Below are positions 4,647-11,985 of a stretch of 13,110 bases of DNA, one piece after another. The number at the start of each line of letters is the position of its first letter. Position 1 is the stretch's first letter. This DNA is from a virus (Duplodnaviria; Heunggongvirae; Uroviricota; Caudoviricetes; Schitoviridae): the IMG/VR virus record IMGVR_UViG_3300033155_001073; one strand, 5' to 3'. The notes under the pieces are model-generated. The model did not search any database. It saw only the letters and a list, made by a program, of their open reading frames with translations, and was not told the origin of the DNA. The position numbers and the translations under genes were made by a program.

Positions 4647-5768
4647 ATGTTACCTCAAGATAGAGCACTTGATCGTACTAAGATAGCTTTAATGACCTCT
4701 GAGTCTGCTTTCTTAGTTGCAATGGCTCTAAGTCTACATCATCATTTTGATGAGAGCGAAGAGACAGCATGCACTAATGGGGTATATGTTAAGTATAACC
4801 CAGACTTCTTCCTTAGTTTGCCTGAGAAGCAACGACTTACTCTGATGGTACACGAAGTATGGCATGTAGCTCTACTTCATAACTATAGAGGTAAAGGGAA
4901 GGACCACGAGAAGTATAACAGAGCAGCAGATTATACAAATAATCAACTTTTAAAAGACGCTGGCTTTGAACCTATACCTGGTTGGTTACAGGATGATAAA
5001 TATAAAGATATGAGTACTAATCAAATCTATAATTTATTACCTGATGAACCACCAAAAAATAATCCTATGGGAGGAGATATAGTAGCTCCCCCTGGAGGTA
5101 CAGAATCAGGACTTGCAGATGCAAAAGCTAAAGTTGAGCAACAAATCATTCAAGCACAAGTACAATCTGAATTAGCTGGGGATGCGCCCGGGTCTTTACC
5201 TGAGGAGCTGCAGCGTCAGATTAAAAAGTTATTGAATCCTGCATTACCATGGGAAGCAATCCTTGGTAGATTTATGCAAGATCAAGCCAAGAATGATTAC
5301 TCATGGGCCAGACCAAATAAGCGGTTTATGCCTGATTTCTATATGCCATCATTACATTCAGAACGATTAGAACATTTAACATTTGCCATTGATACTAGTG
5401 GCTCTGTTACAGATGACGACATGGTCGCAATGTTAACTGAGATTAATTATATCAAAGAAGTTATGCAGCCTAATCGCATGACTATACTTGATTGTGACAC
5501 TATTATACATAATGTATATGATGTTACAGATAGTGATGATATATTAGAATTAGAATTCACTGGAGGAGGAGGCACTAAATGTGCTCCTGTCATTGAATTC
5601 TGTGAAAAGCAGCATACAACAGCGTTGGTGTACTTCACTGATTTATATATGCGTGAGTACCCACATCCCATTACATTTCCATTATTATGGATCGTATACA
5701 ACAATCCCAATAGAACGAAAGTTAATATTGGGGAAATAACACATTATGATATTAAAGGTTCCAAATGA
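4647..5768 (+). CDS. HExxH metallopeptidase-like plus VWA-like domain protein (DUF2201-type; N4 gp25-like)
   Basis: TACTNG, HEVWHVALLH (HExxH), N.AADY..N, MIDAS DTSGS, GGGGT and FTD motifs; AAGGA RBS upstream. Confidence 0.92.
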   Translation: MLPQDRALDRTKIALMTSESAFLVAMALSLHHHFDESEETACTNGVYVKYNPDFFLSLPEKQRLTLMVHEVWHVALLHNYRGKGKDHEKYNRAADYTNNQLLKDAGFEPIPGWLQDDKYKDMSTNQIYNLLPDEPPKNNPMGGDIVAPPGGTESGLADAKAKVEQQIIQAQVQSELAGDAPGSLPEELQRQIKKLLNPALPWEAILGRFMQDQAKNDYSWARPNKRFMPDFYMPSLHSERLEHLTFAIDTSGSVTDDDMVAMLTEINYIKEVMQPNRMTILDCDTIIHNVYDVTDSDDILELEFTGGGGTKCAPVIEFCEKQHTTALVYFTDLYMREYPHPITFPLLWIVYNNPNRTKVNIGEITHYDIKGSK

Positions 5769-5944
5769 GTACAGATACAACAGAAATAAAAGAACATTAT
5801 GAATTACAAGTACAACTCCATGCTTCTATTGAGCTATGCAAAGAATGCTATGCAGCTCAGATATTAAATGGAAAACTACTTTGTACTCATGATGATCCTA
5901 CACCAATTAACTGCAATGTGCTAAAGGTACATGGAGCCTTCTAA
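5765..5944 (+). CDS. Small Cys-rich protein, 59 aa (not in the ORF track)
   Basis: Translated by hand: MSTDTTEIKEHYELQVQLHASIELCKECYAAQILNGKLLCTHDDPTPINCNVLKVHGAF. It has an ATGA overlap with the upstream stop and a TAATG overlap with the downstream start, filling the gap exactly. Confidence 0.8.
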   Translation: MSTDTTEIKEHYELQVQLHASIELCKECYAAQILNGKLLCTHDDPTPINCNVLKVHGAF

Positions 5945-6504
5945 TGGAATCAGGGCAAGCTAAAGATATACTGGATAAGTTACTCCATGATCTATATGAA
6001 GTACCTTTACATGGTGTCTATAATAATATAGCACTTATTGTCCAAGAAAACGCAGAAGTAATCCTTAATATACGAAATGACGATGTTGTACGTTATGTAC
6101 GATTTGAAAGTGGCATCTATTATAGCACCAACTTACCAAGCTATAAGGATAGAAAATCAATCCTATATGATACACAAATACCTAATCGCAATATGACTAT
6201 GCATGAGTCAATACGTGAACCACTAATGGTAGAAATACATGAGCGTACAGAACTCGAGCAAGAACAAAAAGCATGCGCCTATTACTTACGTACTTTATTA
6301 AATCAATGTAATTCATTACGTGATGTGCAAGCCCTCCTTCCGGGGGCTATCTGGAATCTTCTAGGTATAACAATAAAAACTGAGAGTATAGGCCCATTAA
6401 GCTATACCTCTGAAAATTTTGATAAAATCAAAGCAGAGCATGCCGAAGATGCTGCAATAATTAAAGAACGATTATTCTTAAACTTATTATTAAAAAAGGT
6501 ATAA
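5944..6504 (+). CDS. N4 gp38-like conserved protein
   Basis: The C-terminal pattern YL..LL..C.S..D...LLP..I..LL and the position shortly upstream of the polymerase resemble the conserved gene preceding DNA polymerase in N4-like phages (from memory). GGAG RBS upstream. Confidence 0.6.
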   Translation: MESGQAKDILDKLLHDLYEVPLHGVYNNIALIVQENAEVILNIRNDDVVRYVRFESGIYYSTNLPSYKDRKSILYDTQIPNRNMTMHESIREPLMVEIHERTELEQEQKACAYYLRTLLNQCNSLRDVQALLPGAIWNLLGITIKTESIGPLSYTSENFDKIKAEHAEDAAIIKERLFLNLLLKKV

Positions 6505-6505
6505 T

Positions 6506-6742
6506 ATGAAACTTGGTATATTAGCTCAAGAGACTTTAGCAAACATACATGGATCACCTACTCCTATACATATTGATGATTTATTAGAAAAATCTGAACT
6601 CACTAAACATAGTCGTAGACTTAATGCAGTAGTATTGGAATTAGAATCTCGAGGATTAATCTACTTGGTTTTAAATCCAGATAGTATTACGCAGTATGGA
6701 TGTGAATATGGTGTAAGGGGGTTACATGACAAAGAAAAATAA
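6506..6742 (+). CDS. Hypothetical protein, 78 aa, possibly winged-helix
   Basis: AAGG RBS. IHIDDLLEKSEL...RLNAVVLELESRGLIY resembles a wHTH recognition helix and wing. Confidence 0.65.
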   Translation: MKLGILAQETLANIHGSPTPIHIDDLLEKSELTKHSRRLNAVVLELESRGLIYLVLNPDSITQYGCEYGVRGLHDKEK

Positions 6743-6980
6743 ACAATGTGCCGTATGTAAAGGCCACTACGATGCTTCTATGCTCGTAGGAATTATGGAT
6801 ACTTATATCTGTGATGTGTGTGCCCAGGAAATGGATAGTATGATGCAAAAAGAGTTAGGTGAAGATTATAAGAAAGATTTACCTAAAACAACTACTCGTC
6901 ATATTGAAAATGATATACCTATCTTTACTGTATATTCTCCTATACACCCTATAATTGACCCTGAGCCAACAACTGCATAA
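6726..6980 (+). CDS. Small protein with a ClpX-type C4 zinc-finger-like motif
   Basis: CAVC-x16-YICDVC; AGGGG RBS; TAATG overlap with the next gene. Confidence 0.7.
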   Translation: MTKKNKQCAVCKGHYDASMLVGIMDTYICDVCAQEMDSMMQKELGEDYKKDLPKTTTRHIENDIPIFTVYSPIHPIIDPEPTTA

Positions 6981-7192
6981 TGAATAATAATTATTCTTGG
7001 GCAACTACCTCACAAGGATATGTGAGTGTACAACATTTAGGTAAAGAGATAGGGCGAGCTTCTAGTATACAAGAAGCCTTAGCTATTGAAGAACAGCATA
7101 AATTGGAACGTACTAATGAAGCACATCATCTATTCGGCCAACGAAGACAACAAATACGAAATAGCGGTATTAATCAAAGAAAGCGCTTTTAA
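6980..7192 (+). CDS. Hypothetical protein, 70 aa
   Basis: TAATG coupling to the upstream gene. Its 3' 77 nt overlap the polymerase start, so the C-terminal part is uncertain. Confidence 0.55.
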   Translation: MNNNYSWATTSQGYVSVQHLGKEIGRASSIQEALAIEEQHKLERTNEAHHLFGQRRQQIRNSGINQRKRF

Positions 7193-8720
7193 ACATAAAG
7201 CCTTAGTAGAGCACTACTTTGATCCTCTAGCCAAACTAGGTATAAAGCCCGATAGTATGCTTGGATTAAGCTTAACTTACAATGCACAGAATAAAGCTCC
7301 TATATCATTAGTAAATGATAGCTTGGTAACTATTCTAAAAGCCTGTGAGAAATTAGGTATTACAACTTTATTAGTAGCAGATGCTACTTACTTTAAAAAG
7401 TTAACCGGTGAGCGTAAAGCTGAACCACACCACGGATACATTAAACCATGTACTATTACCCAAAAGGTAGAGGTATATGATGAAATTGAAAAAAAATATA
7501 AAACAATTAAAGAACCTTATAAGATAGATATTATCTTATCGGTAAATTATCAGGTACTATTTTATAAACCTGATATGCAAGATAAGTTAATTATGAGTTT
7601 AGAAACTCTAGCTAACCACACTCAAGGGACGCATGTAGATTTAGGTATAGACATCATTCATAGTGCTGAATATCCTAGTAGTCAAGAAGATATTGCATCG
7701 ATATTGACTCGTCTACATGCCTATCCCGAACTAACATGTGATATTGAAGCTTTCTCTTTAATATTTAGTGAAGCAGGTATTGGAACTATCTCATTTGCCT
7801 GGGACCAACACAATGGTATTGCATTCCCAGTTGATTATACTGACCAAATAGGGTCAAGTATGATTGGACATCATGGAGCCCAATGGGATAATTATGAGAT
7901 TAAAACTCTTTTACGTGAATTTTTTGAAACCTATAAAGGTAAATTAACTTATCATGGAGGTACCTATGACATTAAAGTTATCATTTATGAGCTTTTCATG
8001 GAAGACCTGCTTGATAATAAAGGGTTACTGGAAGGACTTGATGTTATGTATCGGTCTATCGACGATACAAAGCTCATTACTTACTTGGCTGTTAATAGTA
8101 CTGCTGGCAATGTACTTGGCTTAAAACCAAACTCATTTGAGTATACTGGTAATTACGCCCAGGACGATATTAAGGATATCCGACGCATACCTTTAGATAA
8201 ATTATTAAAATATAATCTTATTGATAGTTTAGCCACTTGGTATGTAAAAAATAAGAACTTACCAATCATGATAGCTGATCAACAACAGCCAATCTATGAT
8301 GACATAATGATTCCAAGTATGAAACTTATTACTCATATGGAATTAACGGGCATGCCAATGGATCCAGATCACATTGAAGTAATGTGTAAAACATTAGTAG
8401 ATGTGATCATGGCTCAAAAAAGCATACTACATGGGTCCCAACTTATTAAAGATTATGAGTGGGATCGCCAACGTGAAGCTTGTGTAATAGCTAATCTACT
8501 TCTAAAAAGGAAGATACGTCCTATAGAAGACTTCTACGAAAGGTTTAACCCAGCTTCAACCAAGCAAGTACAGGAACTCCTCTATGAGGATGACCAATTC
8601 AATCTACCTGTTATTGATAAAACAGATAGTGGTGCTCCGGCTGTAGGGGCTAAAACCTTAAAGAAACATCTAAACCATTTAATTCATAAACATAACCTAA
8701 CTAAAGAGGAACTACAATAA
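7116..8720 (+). CDS. polA: Family A DNA polymerase, fragment 1 (N-terminal UDG-like region, 3'-5' exonuclease, start of thumb), about 534 aa
   Basis: ATG 7116 follows GGAA. Exo I TCDIEAFSL, Exo II YHGGTYD, Exo III KYNLIDSLATW; MELTGMPMD; FNPASTKQVQELLY; T.SG.P..G.KTLKK. The ORF stops in the thumb with no polymerase motifs A-C. Confidence 0.93.
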   Translation: MKHIIYSANEDNKYEIAVLIKESAFKHKALVEHYFDPLAKLGIKPDSMLGLSLTYNAQNKAPISLVNDSLVTILKACEKLGITTLLVADATYFKKLTGERKAEPHHGYIKPCTITQKVEVYDEIEKKYKTIKEPYKIDIILSVNYQVLFYKPDMQDKLIMSLETLANHTQGTHVDLGIDIIHSAEYPSSQEDIASILTRLHAYPELTCDIEAFSLIFSEAGIGTISFAWDQHNGIAFPVDYTDQIGSSMIGHHGAQWDNYEIKTLLREFFETYKGKLTYHGGTYDIKVIIYELFMEDLLDNKGLLEGLDVMYRSIDDTKLITYLAVNSTAGNVLGLKPNSFEYTGNYAQDDIKDIRRIPLDKLLKYNLIDSLATWYVKNKNLPIMIADQQQPIYDDIMIPSMKLITHMELTGMPMDPDHIEVMCKTLVDVIMAQKSILHGSQLIKDYEWDRQREACVIANLLLKRKIRPIEDFYERFNPASTKQVQELLYEDDQFNLPVIDKTDSGAPAVGAKTLKKHLNHLIHKHNLTKEELQ

Positions 8721-9190
8721 TGTGGGGCACGACAAAAGAACAAGTAACAGATTTAACTATTAAGTTAAACGCTATAACACTTAAGTATGAAAAAGTACTT
8801 AGTGATAATTTAACTAGAGCTGAAGAAGAAGTCGTATCTATTGCACTGAATGCTGATAAAATTACTTCTTTAGAAGAAACTAAAAAAGGTTTAGAGCAAG
8901 ACATCCTGGACCTTAAAGAAGAAAAACGCCGTGAAACTATCAATATTGAACATGCTACTAAGATTATTTTAGAAAAAAATGAAATTGAATTTGCAAAAAA
9001 AGTAGCTGCAGTTAAAGAAGAAAAAGCTACTGAAATCGCTAAAGTTAAAGATGAATATCGAGATAAAATTGAAAAACAATTAGATGCTCGTGGTTCAGAA
9101 ATGAAAGAAATGTATACTGATGTTCTTACTAAACTTACAAGTGTAACAGGTACTGTGCACACTCCTGCGGTACCTATTAAGGAGAGCTAA
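8720..9190 (+). CDS. Coiled-coil protein, 156 aa, lying inside the polymerase locus
   Basis: GAGGA RBS; TAATG overlap with pol fragment 1; long E/K-rich heptad region. Confidence 0.85.
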   Translation: MWGTTKEQVTDLTIKLNAITLKYEKVLSDNLTRAEEEVVSIALNADKITSLEETKKGLEQDILDLKEEKRRETINIEHATKIILEKNEIEFAKKVAAVKEEKATEIAKVKDEYRDKIEKQLDARGSEMKEMYTDVLTKLTSVTGTVHTPAVPIKES

Positions 9191-9191
9191 G

Positions 9192-9566
9192 ATGGCTATA
9201 TCACATATGCCACATACCCCATATGGGATGGCTGATGATCGCATGCGGGGGTATAGATCTCGTACTCCTGAACATGAAGAGTTTTTAAGGTATATTAGAA
9301 ATGAAGGACCTTCTTTTTATAGATTCTTTCAGGAAGAATTTACTACTAGAGATTTTGAAAGACTATCGCCAAATAGCTTCTCTCATGTATTTGCTCATTT
9401 AAAAGACAAATACCATAGCAAGGAGGGTTATATGTATAATGAGCCCCTGATAGATTATCATAAGACCTCTGCTAAAAAAGTACCAAAAACGTGGCTTACA
9501 GAAATGCAGGCTGAAATTAAAGAATGGCTTAAAGATGTTAACACACTTATAGCTAAACCAGTATAA
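9192..9566 (+). CDS. Hypothetical protein, 124 aa, inside the polymerase locus
   Basis: GGAG RBS 7 nt upstream; no recognisable motif. Confidence 0.8.
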   Translation: MAISHMPHTPYGMADDRMRGYRSRTPEHEEFLRYIRNEGPSFYRFFQEEFTTRDFERLSPNSFSHVFAHLKDKYHSKEGYMYNEPLIDYHKTSAKKVPKTWLTEMQAEIKEWLKDVNTLIAKPV

Positions 9567-9581
9567 CCAAGGAAAATAAAT

Positions 9582-10178
9582 ATGAGCTTAATGCTTCGTA
9601 AATCATGTCAAGAAGTGCTTGACAACTATGGGATCTCAGATCTCCATGCATCTATGGATACTTACTTAAAATTATCTATTGTTAGTGAATGTGGAAAACC
9701 ATTCGTAACTATCCAGGGTGTTGAGTTTACTCGACAAATTCCAACTAAATTAGAAATTGATTATGCTACAGAGTTACTTGATAACTTCTTAGCTACACAT
9801 ATTGAGGACATTGCTACTTACCGTAGACGTAAAGCTATCTTTGATCGTCAACCTACTAAACCAGATGATGGTGATGATGCCGAATTCTTTTTACATGGAC
9901 AAAGTCATGGTGATTATCGTAGTGATTTATATGTATCTTGGAAGACAGATTCATTTACTTACCAAGTTAATAAAAAAGACAAACTTCATTTTCATATTGT
10001 TGATGGTCTAACTAAGGAAACAGACATCACTAAAATGATTGCCGGCATGAAGAAACTCAAACATGACAAAAAACAAGTTACTGCTGCCAAGAAGTTTTTG
10101 AAAGGTTGGGTCAAGTATGACGAAGAACGTGTGTTCTTAGTTAAGTTAAAGTCTAAGCTATCATCTTGTAATATTTAA
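9582..10178 (+). CDS. Hypothetical protein, 198 aa, inside the polymerase locus
   Basis: AAGGA RBS; long ORF; no recognisable motif. Confidence 0.85.
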   Translation: MSLMLRKSCQEVLDNYGISDLHASMDTYLKLSIVSECGKPFVTIQGVEFTRQIPTKLEIDYATELLDNFLATHIEDIATYRRRKAIFDRQPTKPDDGDDAEFFLHGQSHGDYRSDLYVSWKTDSFTYQVNKKDKLHFHIVDGLTKETDITKMIAGMKKLKHDKKQVTAAKKFLKGWVKYDEERVFLVKLKSKLSSCNI

Positions 10179-10192
10179 TACCTGGAAGACGT

Positions 10193-10687
10193 ATGAGTAC
10201 CCCTAGATCAGAAATTATACAACAAGCCAAAATACTTAAAGCATTAATTGCATTAAGTGAAGCAGATATCATCTTAAATAACTTTGTTTATGCTTTCATG
10301 AACAAGACTATTGATAAGGGTGATTATGTTAAGTGGCTTCATGGTAATTTCAATTTAGGAGGTACTGTCTCCGGACGATTAAGTAGCTCTAAAGTAAATT
10401 TACAAAATCTACCCAGCTCAGGCTCTAAGTATGCAAAACTAGTAAAAACTGGTTTTGTTGCCCCTGAAGGGTGGATCCTATGTGGTGCTGATTTCTCTTC
10501 ATTAGAAGATAAAATATCTGCACTTACAACTAAAGATCCAAACAAATTAAAGGTATACATGGGCCATGATGTGTATGAATTAAACATTAATGGTACTGTA
10601 CATCAGATCCGAGATGATGCTATAATAGACTTCGATGGTAAACAATACACTGGAGAAGAATTTTATGATACCTATAGCACACTATGA
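10193..10687 (+). CDS. polA: Family A DNA polymerase, fragment 2 (rest of thumb, palm motif A) plus a 42-aa C-terminal extension
   Basis: GGAAG RBS; LHGNFNLGGTVSGRLSSSKVNLQNLPS, GFVAPEGWILCGADFSSLED (motif A), ALTTKDPNKLKVY. Non-polymerase sequence runs from 10559 to the stop. Confidence 0.93.
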   Translation: MSTPRSEIIQQAKILKALIALSEADIILNNFVYAFMNKTIDKGDYVKWLHGNFNLGGTVSGRLSSSKVNLQNLPSSGSKYAKLVKTGFVAPEGWILCGADFSSLEDKISALTTKDPNKLKVYMGHDVYELNINGTVHQIRDDAIIDFDGKQYTGEEFYDTYSTL

Positions 10688-11204
10688 AATACGTTATTTA
10701 ATTAATAATAAAGGTGAAATATTTAACCTTGCAAATAATAAATATAAGAAATTAAGTAAACAATCTACTGGGTATCTAACTGTAGCTTTAGCTGATGGAA
10801 AAGGTAAACATAAAACCTATTCTGTACATATATTAGTAGCAAAACATTTTATACCTAATCCATATAATCATCCACTAGTTAATCATAAAGATGGAGATAA
10901 AACTAATCCTGACTGGGAAAATTTAGAATGGTGTGATTATGAATACAATGCACAACATGCATTGAGAACAGGGTTACGTCCTGGTTATATGTCAGCTAGT
11001 AATAAAGAACTTTATCTACAAGAAGTCTTGTCAGGTAAACAAGTCAAAGATATTGCAGAAGAAATCAACCGTAGACCAGAAACTTTACATAAAATGTTGC
11101 GTGAAACCGCTAAACGACTTAACTTACATGATGAATGGAAGTTAGTAATGAAAGAGAATCGTAAAAATGCAGCAATTCGCAACCTTGAAAAGATCAACAA
11201 TTAG
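10665..11204 (+). CDS. HNH homing endonuclease, NUMOD4/I-HmuI-like, inserted in the polymerase gene, about 179 aa
   Basis: GGAG at 10652-10655 precedes ATG 10665. Motifs: HYE.RY.INNKGEI, GYL.V.L, YSVHILVAKHFIPNP, VNHKDGDKTN..WENLEWC....N.QHA...GL. C-terminal HTH-like VKDIAEEINRRPETL. Confidence 0.92.
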   Translation: MIPIAHYEIRYLINNKGEIFNLANNKYKKLSKQSTGYLTVALADGKGKHKTYSVHILVAKHFIPNPYNHPLVNHKDGDKTNPDWENLEWCDYEYNAQHALRTGLRPGYMSASNKELYLQEVLSGKQVKDIAEEINRRPETLHKMLRETAKRLNLHDEWKLVMKENRKNAAIRNLEKINN

Positions 11205-11985
11205 CATTCCTAAAGATGCTATAATAACAATTAAAAAGGTAGGACAAACAGATGGATATGATGGACACTGCCTCAGGGCATATTCGTATTTTCCTGATAA
11301 AATGTCAGGTATCGTGGATACTGTTTCGAGCATCAATTCCATCGAAACAAGATATCCTGAGTTACGCCAGGACTCTAAAGCACCGACATTTCTATTAACC
11401 TATCAAGGTACATACCATGGGTTAATGAATAATGTAGGCTTATCAAAAAAAGTAGCCCAGGCTATTGAAAAAGCCTACCATGAAATGTATGTTGTATCCG
11501 ATGAATGGGTAGCAGATAAACTAAAACAAGCATCAAAAGATGGGTATGTCACTGTAGCCTTTGGCTTACGGGTAAGAACTCCTATCTTGAAACAAACTAT
11601 ACTAAACAACTCTAAGACTCCTTATGAAGCCCAGGCTGAAGGGAGAACTGCAGGTAACGCATTAGGACAATCATATGGACTTCTCAACAACCGCTCTGGT
11701 ATCGATTTTCATCAGCGTCTTATGGATTCTGTTCATAAATTGGATATCAAACCTATAGCACACATCCATGATGCCCAATACTTCTTAGTAAGGAAGGATG
11801 TAGCTGTACTTAAATGGTTTAACGACAACTTAGTCGAAACTATGAAGTGGCAGAACCTTCCAGAGATACAACACCCTACAGTGAAGTTAGGTGGTAATGT
11901 AGAGGTATACTGGCCTAATTGGGCCACTAAAACTGTACTTCCAAATAACGCAAGTGAAGATGAAATAAGGAAACTATTCAAATGA
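11167..11985 (+). CDS. polA: Family A DNA polymerase, fragment 3 (fingers, motifs B and C) with a 27-aa N-terminal extension
   Basis: Polymerase sequence resumes at TDGYDGHCLRAYSYF (11248). Motif B RQDSKAPTFLLTYQG, GYVTVAFGLRVRTP, AEGRTAGNALGQSYG, motif C HIHDAQYF. Confidence 0.94.
   Translation: MQQFATLKRSTISIPKDAIITIKKVGQTDGYDGHCLRAYSYFPDKMSGIVDTVSSINSIETRYPELRQDSKAPTFLLTYQGTYHGLMNNVGLSKKVAQAIEKAYHEMYVVSDEWVADKLKQASKDGYVTVAFGLRVRTPILKQTILNNSKTPYEAQAEGRTAGNALGQSYGLLNNRSGIDFHQRLMDSVHKLDIKPIAHIHDAQYFLVRKDVAVLKWFNDNLVETMKWQNLPEIQHPTVKLGGNVEVYWPNWATKTVLPNNASEDEIRKLFK

Follow-up and report, generated by a model that had tools for sequence, protein, structure and literature searches.

Family A DNA polymerases are known from textbooks as single-chain enzymes and are mainstays of biotechnology. 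Among phage replication enzymes that are encoded in pieces, the closest worked case for the locus described here is the ribonucleotide reductase (RNR) subunit NrdA of Aeh1, whose tails, created by the insertion of an endonuclease gene, are essential for assembling the active enzyme (PMC3045599). The split PolB of PhiKZ forms a stable 1:1 complex of DNAP-N and DNAP-C, as seen by cryo-EM (PMC13648687), and a split PolA has been reported in a T7-like cyanophage lineage (bioRxiv 10.1101/325100). Nor is a two-piece polA new in N4-like phages, since it is already annotated in cultured isolates at the position that we term break 2 below and has been remarked upon in the literature (PMC3670811). Here we analyze the polA locus of an uncultured phage of the Schitoviridae family, IMG/VR record IMGVR_UViG_3300033155_001073, in a stretch of 13,110 nucleotides (hereafter the window) corresponding to the first 13.1 kb of the record. 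We conclude, with a probability of roughly 0.7, that the sole replicative family A polymerase of this phage is translated as three separate chains, which reassemble non-covalently, a first break (break 1) being an old split between coupled genes and break 2 a mobile cassette providing probable docking tails.

Three polymerase genes in place of one

The original prediction held that three open reading frames (ORFs) of the same strand carry the parts of one polymerase, in order and without redundancy. Our analysis confirms that a family A DNA polymerase with 3'-5' exonuclease, of the N4 gp39 type, is encoded on the plus strand in three ORFs, located at 7116-8720 (534 aa), 10193-10687 (164 aa) and 11167-11985 (272 aa) and termed polA fragments 1, 2 and 3. 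Whereas the N4 gp39-type enzyme is a single polypeptide, these fragments lie in differing reading frames and each of them has its own stop. Their polymerase-derived portions are the following.

7116..8720, + strand: polA fragment 1, comprising the N-terminal region, the 3'-5' exonuclease motifs and the first half of the thumb, and ending HNLTKEELQ-stop (phrog_17; 44.8% identity to EcP1 polA)
10193..10558, + strand: polA fragment 2 core (122 aa), comprising the second thumb helix, the GGTVSGRLSSS segment and motif A (PF00476, 54.2 bits)
11248..11985, + strand: polA fragment 3 core, comprising the fingers (motif B) and the palm (motif C, HD) (PF00476, 46.5 bits; phrog_2573, E 1.2e-51)

Matches to the Pfam model PF00476 (cut-off 34.3 bits) were colinear and non-redundant across the three fragments, fragment 1 covering model positions 27-75 with 16 bits, under the cut-off, and fragments 2 and 3 covering positions 73-188 and 200-361 with scores over it. 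The PHROG model phrog_17 was likewise matched in order by fragment 1 (535-922, E 4.9e-48), fragment 2 (931-1043, E 1e-31) and fragment 3 (1035-1246, E 3e-37). All the catalytic residues expected to be intact were found in the translations: the exonuclease (Exo) motifs D-I-E, YD and YNLID in fragment 1, motif A (DFSSLED) in fragment 2, and motif B, RQDSKAPTFLLTYQG (K..F..YG), together with motif C (HIHD) in fragment 3. The fragment 2 core aligns to Taq residues 560-639, motif A included. As anticipated, the fragments can be aligned with intact enzymes: together they fully tile the 865-aa polymerase of EcP1, and that of Pollock likewise. The residues in excess over EcP1 amount to about 12 + 9 at break 1 and to 42 + 27 at break 2. 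In relatives, all three fragments have kept their start codons. In tblastn searches the polA pieces matched 476 phage records, all from N4-like hosts or genera, at 44-62% amino acid identity, with fragment 3 being 60% identical to its Pylas counterpart. The best polA matches all belong to Schitoviridae and a 2409-aa ORF of the genome matches the giant virion RNA polymerase (phrog_2206, E 0), placing the phage in this family.

The sub-threshold Pfam polymerase score of fragment 1 could suggest that the fragments are relics, in which case the polymerase would be inactive or only partly used, for instance with fragment 1 serving as an exonuclease, and replication would be carried out by another polymerase. 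However, no further polA match besides fragments 1-3 was found in the whole 76,976-bp genome, a record with direct terminal repeats (103-bp repeat) and a CheckV completeness of 100%, so the intact second copy that could have overturned the original prediction is absent. The fragments do not display the decay that would equally have contradicted it. When compared with the relatives L008 and L010, the proportion of synonymous differences (pS) was saturated at 0.70-0.82, whereas nonsynonymous divergence (dN), spanning 0.2-0.34, was 0.34 for fragment 1, 0.22-0.27 for fragment 2 and 0.26-0.29 for fragment 3 (against L008 alone: dN 0.34 and pS 0.73 for fragment 1, dN 0.22 for fragment 2, dN 0.26 and pS 0.80 for fragment 3). 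These rates indicate that purifying selection acts on all three fragments. Considering in addition that all catalytic motifs are intact and that the same layouts persist in diverged lineages and in cultured phages, we regard a relic as extremely unlikely.

A mobile HNH cassette at break 2

Break 2 is situated 16 residues past motif A. In alignments, homology to intact enzymes ends at KVY and picks up at TDGYDGH, and the intervening 689-nt cassette (10559-11247) consists of a 42-aa tail with its stop, an HNH gene and a restart with a 27-aa leader.

10559..10687, + strand: element-derived C-terminal tail of fragment 2 (42 aa plus stop), without counterpart in intact homologues or cassette-less alleles
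10665..11204, + strand: free-standing HNH homing endonuclease gene, I-HmuI-like (Pfam NUMOD4 and HNH_3; phrog_59, E 4.8e-36)
11167..11247, + strand: element-derived N-terminal leader of fragment 3 (27 aa), its ATG lying within the HNH gene, without counterpart in intact homologues

The longest ORF for the HNH gene begins at 10635, the likely start being 10665, which is preceded by GGAG. The protein matches I-HmuI (PDB 1U3E, E 2.4e-12) and is 57-62% identical to the HNH proteins that Pylas, Pollock, L102 and L116 carry at this position. The polA gene is split by the same cassette, its tail, HNH gene and leader all being homologous, in four Escherichia phages (Pollock, VEc25, SP5M and PD205), in Klebsiella phage Pylas and also in several contigs of IMG/VR; of these carriers, VEc25, Pollock, Pylas and SP5M are cultured, viable isolates. 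All cassettes compared conserve the stop, the frame and the restart ATG, and the start position and motifs of the leader are kept in 8 other cassettes. The polA genes of VEc25 and N4 (gp39) share 97-99% nucleotide identity except for a 702-bp insertion in place of 7 nt, and cassette-less alleles, detected on marine-sediment and cold-seep DNA metagenome contigs that are 85-99% like the window, join 10557 to 11248 and read KVYTDGYDGH. Because of these two comparisons, tail, HNH gene and leader can be seen to move as a single unit that is polymorphic among near relatives. We conclude that break 2 arose by insertion of a mobile I-HmuI-like HNH cassette and that the tail and the leader came with the insertion.

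Tail residues are conserved across 9 cassettes or phages, and the differences concentrate at third codon positions (for example 4/3/20, 2/3/17 and 6/8/17 differences at positions 1/2/3). When a profile of the tail was searched against 1.84 billion proteins, it retrieved 42 cluster representatives, of which 27 reached E<=1e-10; almost every match sits at the very C-terminal end of a polA N-fragment or of a small motif-A fragment. The tail is thus under purifying selection at the protein level, which argues against an intron. The AlphaFold2 (AF2) model of the tail contains four short beta-strands and a helix, with a predicted local distance difference test score (pLDDT) of about 56-71.

Were the HNH gene housed in a cryptic self-splicing intron at break 2, the spliced mRNA would direct the synthesis of a two-piece enzyme (fragment 1 plus fused fragments 2-3), and the tail and the leader would be mere read-through of unspliced RNA. 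I-HmuI, the closest solved relative of the HNH protein, is intron-encoded in the polA gene of SPO1, and a true group I intron with an HNH ORF is present elsewhere in the polA genes of L102 and L114. Several further points weigh against three non-covalently associated chains. In the Pylas record this cassette figures as an intron, and the coding sequence (CDS) is given as joined, and introns were suggested for Vibrio N4-like phages (JA1/VchO139-I) in which HNH genes split the DNA polymerase (DNAP) gene (PMC3670811). The covariance model for group I introns, RF00028, may miss divergent introns, the intron of L102 that served as a control having itself scored under the gathering threshold. The leader ends in Gln, Asn or Ser before Thr or Ser, faintly resembling an intein C-junction. 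Finally, the AF2 model of isolated fragment 2 is of low confidence (mean pLDDT 55) and can therefore be taken as a weak hint for the tail only.

Searches for a group I intron gave no Rfam match on the whole window at E<=1, nor on positions 8500-11400 at E<=10. RF00028 was not matched at the break-2 site in the window and in four other cassette carriers (VEc25, Pollock, Pylas and L102), nor at the corresponding sites in L008 and L010. In the same run, another site of the L102 polA gene yielded two RF00028 matches (30.8 and 30.4 bits; E ~5e-4, sub-threshold) flanking a different HNH ORF, and this intron therefore provides an internal positive control. Moreover, only about 150 nt of the 689-nt cassette fall outside the HNH ORF, the third-position bias of the tail, with residues conserved over a saturated synonymous distance, points to selection on a protein, and stop, restart ATG and frame are constant throughout the cassettes. 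We therefore consider an intron at break 2 unlikely.

Tail and leader could otherwise be the remains of a strongly reduced split intein, or some other module for protein ligation, by which chains 2 and 3 would be joined post-translationally. The beta-rich tail and the residues at the leader junction could be read in this way, and inteins do occur in related polA genes: L012 carries a true split intein with a free-standing HNH gene, and P0023 a C-intein half. However, both pieces together reach 69 aa, whereas the smallest Hint domains have about 130 aa, the tail begins with Met or Val where Cys, Ser or Ala would be expected, a penultimate His is lacking, and the leader ends in G-Q/N/S, its last residue being Ser in the viable phages VEc25 and SP5M; the pair does not qualify as a split-intein Hint domain. 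The Pfam families Intein_splicing and Hint had no match on the tail or the leader of the window even at E<=1, whereas Intein_splicing matched both halves of the L012 split intein in a positive control. Ligation by an intein-like module is thus very unlikely, and the reading that we retain is that of chains 2 and 3 remaining separate.

The L012 intein belongs to a third polA site, between GRLSS and ..NLQ, which is occupied by an intron in some phages and by a split intein in other phages, the HNH genes being related. In L012 (3283-6945) polA is broken there in a fractured-gene order, namely an N-intein half (beginning CLPKG), a free-standing 255-aa HNH ORF and a C-intein half (ending VHN before Ser), the Pfam Intein_splicing matches being weak. 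In L102 (5837-6506), and also in L103-L105 and L114, the same site is occupied by an HNH ORF with flanking intron matches. We considered L102-L105 as another true three-piece enzyme and rejected this, since the first interruption gives group I intron matches. P0023, a 124-aa polA middle fragment recovered in the tail-profile search, has a C-intein half (YVHN before Ser) at its start and the non-intein break-2 tail at its end; it would combine trans-splicing and plain splitting in one enzyme.

The thumb split, its cargo and the genomic surroundings

Break 1 (8720-10192) falls within a length-variable loop of the thumb and aligns at about residue 495 of N4 gp39 and residue 373 of T7 gp5. It was also considered as the insertion site of the T7 thioredoxin-binding domain; this was rejected, since in the alignment break 1 follows the FNPSS helix and the insertion lies far upstream. 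L008, L010, L088 and L120 share with the window both the stop, which follows a conserved HN(L/I)T-x-EL tail, and the restart. The gap between stop and restart contains a 149-aa ORF in L008 and, in each of L010, L088 and L120, one ORF of a 198-aa family that is represented in the window by cargo ORF 3 (see below) and to which the L008 ORF is unrelated (hhalign probability 0.1%). In cargo-free metagenome alleles, fragment 1 ends ...EKEL(A/S) and its TGA overlaps the ATG of fragment 2 (ATGA); the contigs of the metagenome runs leave parts of the window's cargo region without cover. Because these cargo-free alleles stay split, the thumb split is independent of any inserted gene. Break 1 is best read as an old split, clade-wide in L008, L010, L088 and L120, whose junction was colonised by differing cargo. 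In the window, this cargo comprises three ORFs.

8720..9190, + strand: cargo ORF 1, 156 aa, rich in Glu/Lys and coiled-coil-like on inspection by eye; the fragment 1 stop and its ATG overlap (TAATG)
9192..9566, + strand: cargo ORF 2, 124 aa, ORFan, absent in relatives
9582..10178, + strand: cargo ORF 3, 198 aa, member of a very small ORFan family found at the same polA break in L010, L088 and L120

None of the three has a recognisable function by Pfam, PHROG or comparison with GenBank phages, and a pattern scan gave no IMG/VR relative. Cargo ORF 1 had no Pfam match, no confident PHROG match and no tblastn match in GenBank phages, and is not present in L008, L010, L088 or L120; cargo ORF 2 had no Pfam, PHROG or GenBank phage match. 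The 198-aa family numbers only 6 members in a search of 5.8 billion proteins, and cargo ORF 3 is 32%, 50% and 38% identical to its break-1 homologues in L010, L088 and L120, respectively. An exact look-up of the 198-aa protein returned no record. Its AF2 model (pLDDT 70.8), which includes an alpha-beta3-alpha N-domain at about 90, had no convincing fold match in the PDB, AFDB clusters, VIA wide (best Z 5.0, helical) or Atlas. The start (MSLMLRK) and the end (KLSSCNI) of the family are strikingly conserved. One further member, in L087, adjoins a tRNA-Val gene away from polA. Such a distribution would fit a selfish gene, although a nuclease signature was not found.

Since the window comes from a single metagenome-derived contig, the arrangement might have been produced by an assembly joining reads from several related phages. 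Every junction type recurs, however, in independent contigs, with break 1 and the same cargo family in L010, L088 and L120, and break 2 in many others. L120, an independent and diverged contig, possesses the complete combination: fragments 73% and 60% identical in amino acids to those of the window are laid out in the identical double split, where fragment 1 is followed by a 199-aa family member, by fragment 2 and its tail, by the HNH gene and by fragment 3 with its leader. The contig of the window itself has terminal repeats and 100% estimated completeness. In addition, an identical 198-aa cargo protein is on record for 2 contigs, of which the longest measures 77,110 bp. Hence the chimera that the original prediction had listed among its possible refutations has next to no chance of being the explanation. 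A different three-piece polA was observed in L121 (2645-6733), a more distant 64-kb N4-like contig, where two HNH cassettes separate a 563-aa N-fragment, a 128-aa chain (leader, motif A and the same tail) and a 281-aa C-fragment. The first HNH protein has 228 aa (phrog_374), and the 128-aa chain retains only about 30 polymerase-derived residues between leader and tail.

Upstream in the window lie an RtcB-type RNA ligase gene (65-1045; phrog_1075, E 3.5e-118), a polynucleotide kinase/phosphatase-like ORF (1472-1846) and another HNH endonuclease gene (2060-2575); L120 likewise has RtcB and HNH genes near polA. Directly upstream of polA, positions 5768-7116 contain only ORFs of 59-186 aa, none of helicase size, and in N4, EcP1, Pollock and Pylas a helicase gene is located two genes ahead of polA. 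The virion RNA polymerase also seems divided, on the minus strand at genome positions 23967-36150 (L119): an 845-aa ORF resembles the N-terminal part of phrog_2206 and the 2409-aa ORF its C-terminal part, with a 623-aa ORF without match and a 121-aa ORF between them. A scan for sigma-70 promoters and terminators gave results at or below chance and was therefore uninformative.

Proposed reassembly of the three chains and comparison with known systems

In the scenario that we propose, polA would have been split long ago at break 1 into two translationally coupled genes, and the gap would have turned into a landing pad for variable cargo ORFs. At break 2 the HNH cassette supplies a stop, a restart, a beta-rich tail of 42 aa on chain 2 and a leader of 27 aa on chain 3. 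By analogy with the element-derived tails of Aeh1 NrdA-a and NrdA-b, tail and leader probably aid the docking of these two chains. The carboxylates of motifs A and C would then be located on different chains. The central proposal of the original prediction, a heterotrimeric PolA whose active site is shared by chains 2 and 3, is supported in this form, and we infer that the three chains assemble into an active polymerase.

A wider reading, which we hold tentatively and at slightly worse than even odds, is that the cassette bears a portable and conserved split-repair module, in which the tail and the leader would non-covalently re-zip any PolA that the element cuts. Combined with the older thumb split, it would make the enzyme an obligate heterotrimer with its two catalytic aspartates on different chains; in L121-type relatives chain 2 would be cut down to a motif-A mini-subunit, and the ORFan family of break 1 could be a new type of site-specific selfish gene. 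We do not consider the three-piece polA a new category, because the two-piece form is annotated in isolates, the mechanism has an RNR precedent and other multi-piece layouts exist in metagenomes.

If correct, the thumb loop and the palm/fingers junction would be natural split points of family A polymerases, separate chains could rebuild the active site of such an enzyme, and the tail-leader pair would represent a second and much more widespread case of interaction tails after Aeh1 NrdA. The pair could then serve as a small natural docking device in split-protein engineering. Annotation practice would also be corrected, as these cassettes are now variously labelled introns, joined CDSs or two unrelated polymerase genes. 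The cultured E. coli phages VEc25 and Pollock carry the same cassette, which makes the question directly testable.

In the two-piece polA genes of VEc25, Pollock, SP5M and Pylas, the cassette sits at exactly the codon where it is found in the window, between KVY and TDGYDGH, and the literature on two-piece Schitoviridae polA treats it as a possible intron or as two CDSs. These genes have one break, whereas the window adds the thumb break with its three cargo genes. Fractured genes (Dassa 2009, PMC2677866) also display the order host half, homing endonuclease gene and host half, with extra peptides at both junctions, and the L012 polA is a genuine case. Unlike the split inteins of fractured genes (PMC2677866), the tail and leader of the window lack any defining intein block and are half the minimal size, and the product is expected to stay in pieces. 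With the split PolB of PhiKZ, the split T4-type gp43 and the cyanophage split PolA, our locus shares a phage replicative polymerase made of separate polypeptides that form, or here would form, one enzyme. Those enzymes have two pieces, belong to another family or differ in break points, and no tailed mobile cassette has been described for them. Of the two precedents invoked in the original prediction, split gp43 is not the better one, and Aeh1 NrdA split by mobE is retained as the closest worked case through its element-derived tails.

As in Aeh1 NrdA-a/NrdA-b (mobE; Friedrich 2007; Crona 2011, PMC3045599), a free-standing homing endonuclease gene interrupts the catalytic region of an essential replication-related enzyme, a C-terminal tail and an N-terminal leader have arisen through its insertion, and active-site residues are distributed over different chains. 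Aeh1 NrdA undergoes neither RNA nor protein splicing, and no intron or intein signal was found in the window. The window differs from Aeh1 in that the enzyme is PolA and not RNR and that the endonuclease is an I-HmuI-like HNH protein and not mobE. It differs further in that its tails constitute a widespread conserved module, present in dozens of cassettes, and in that a second, independent break leads to three chains.

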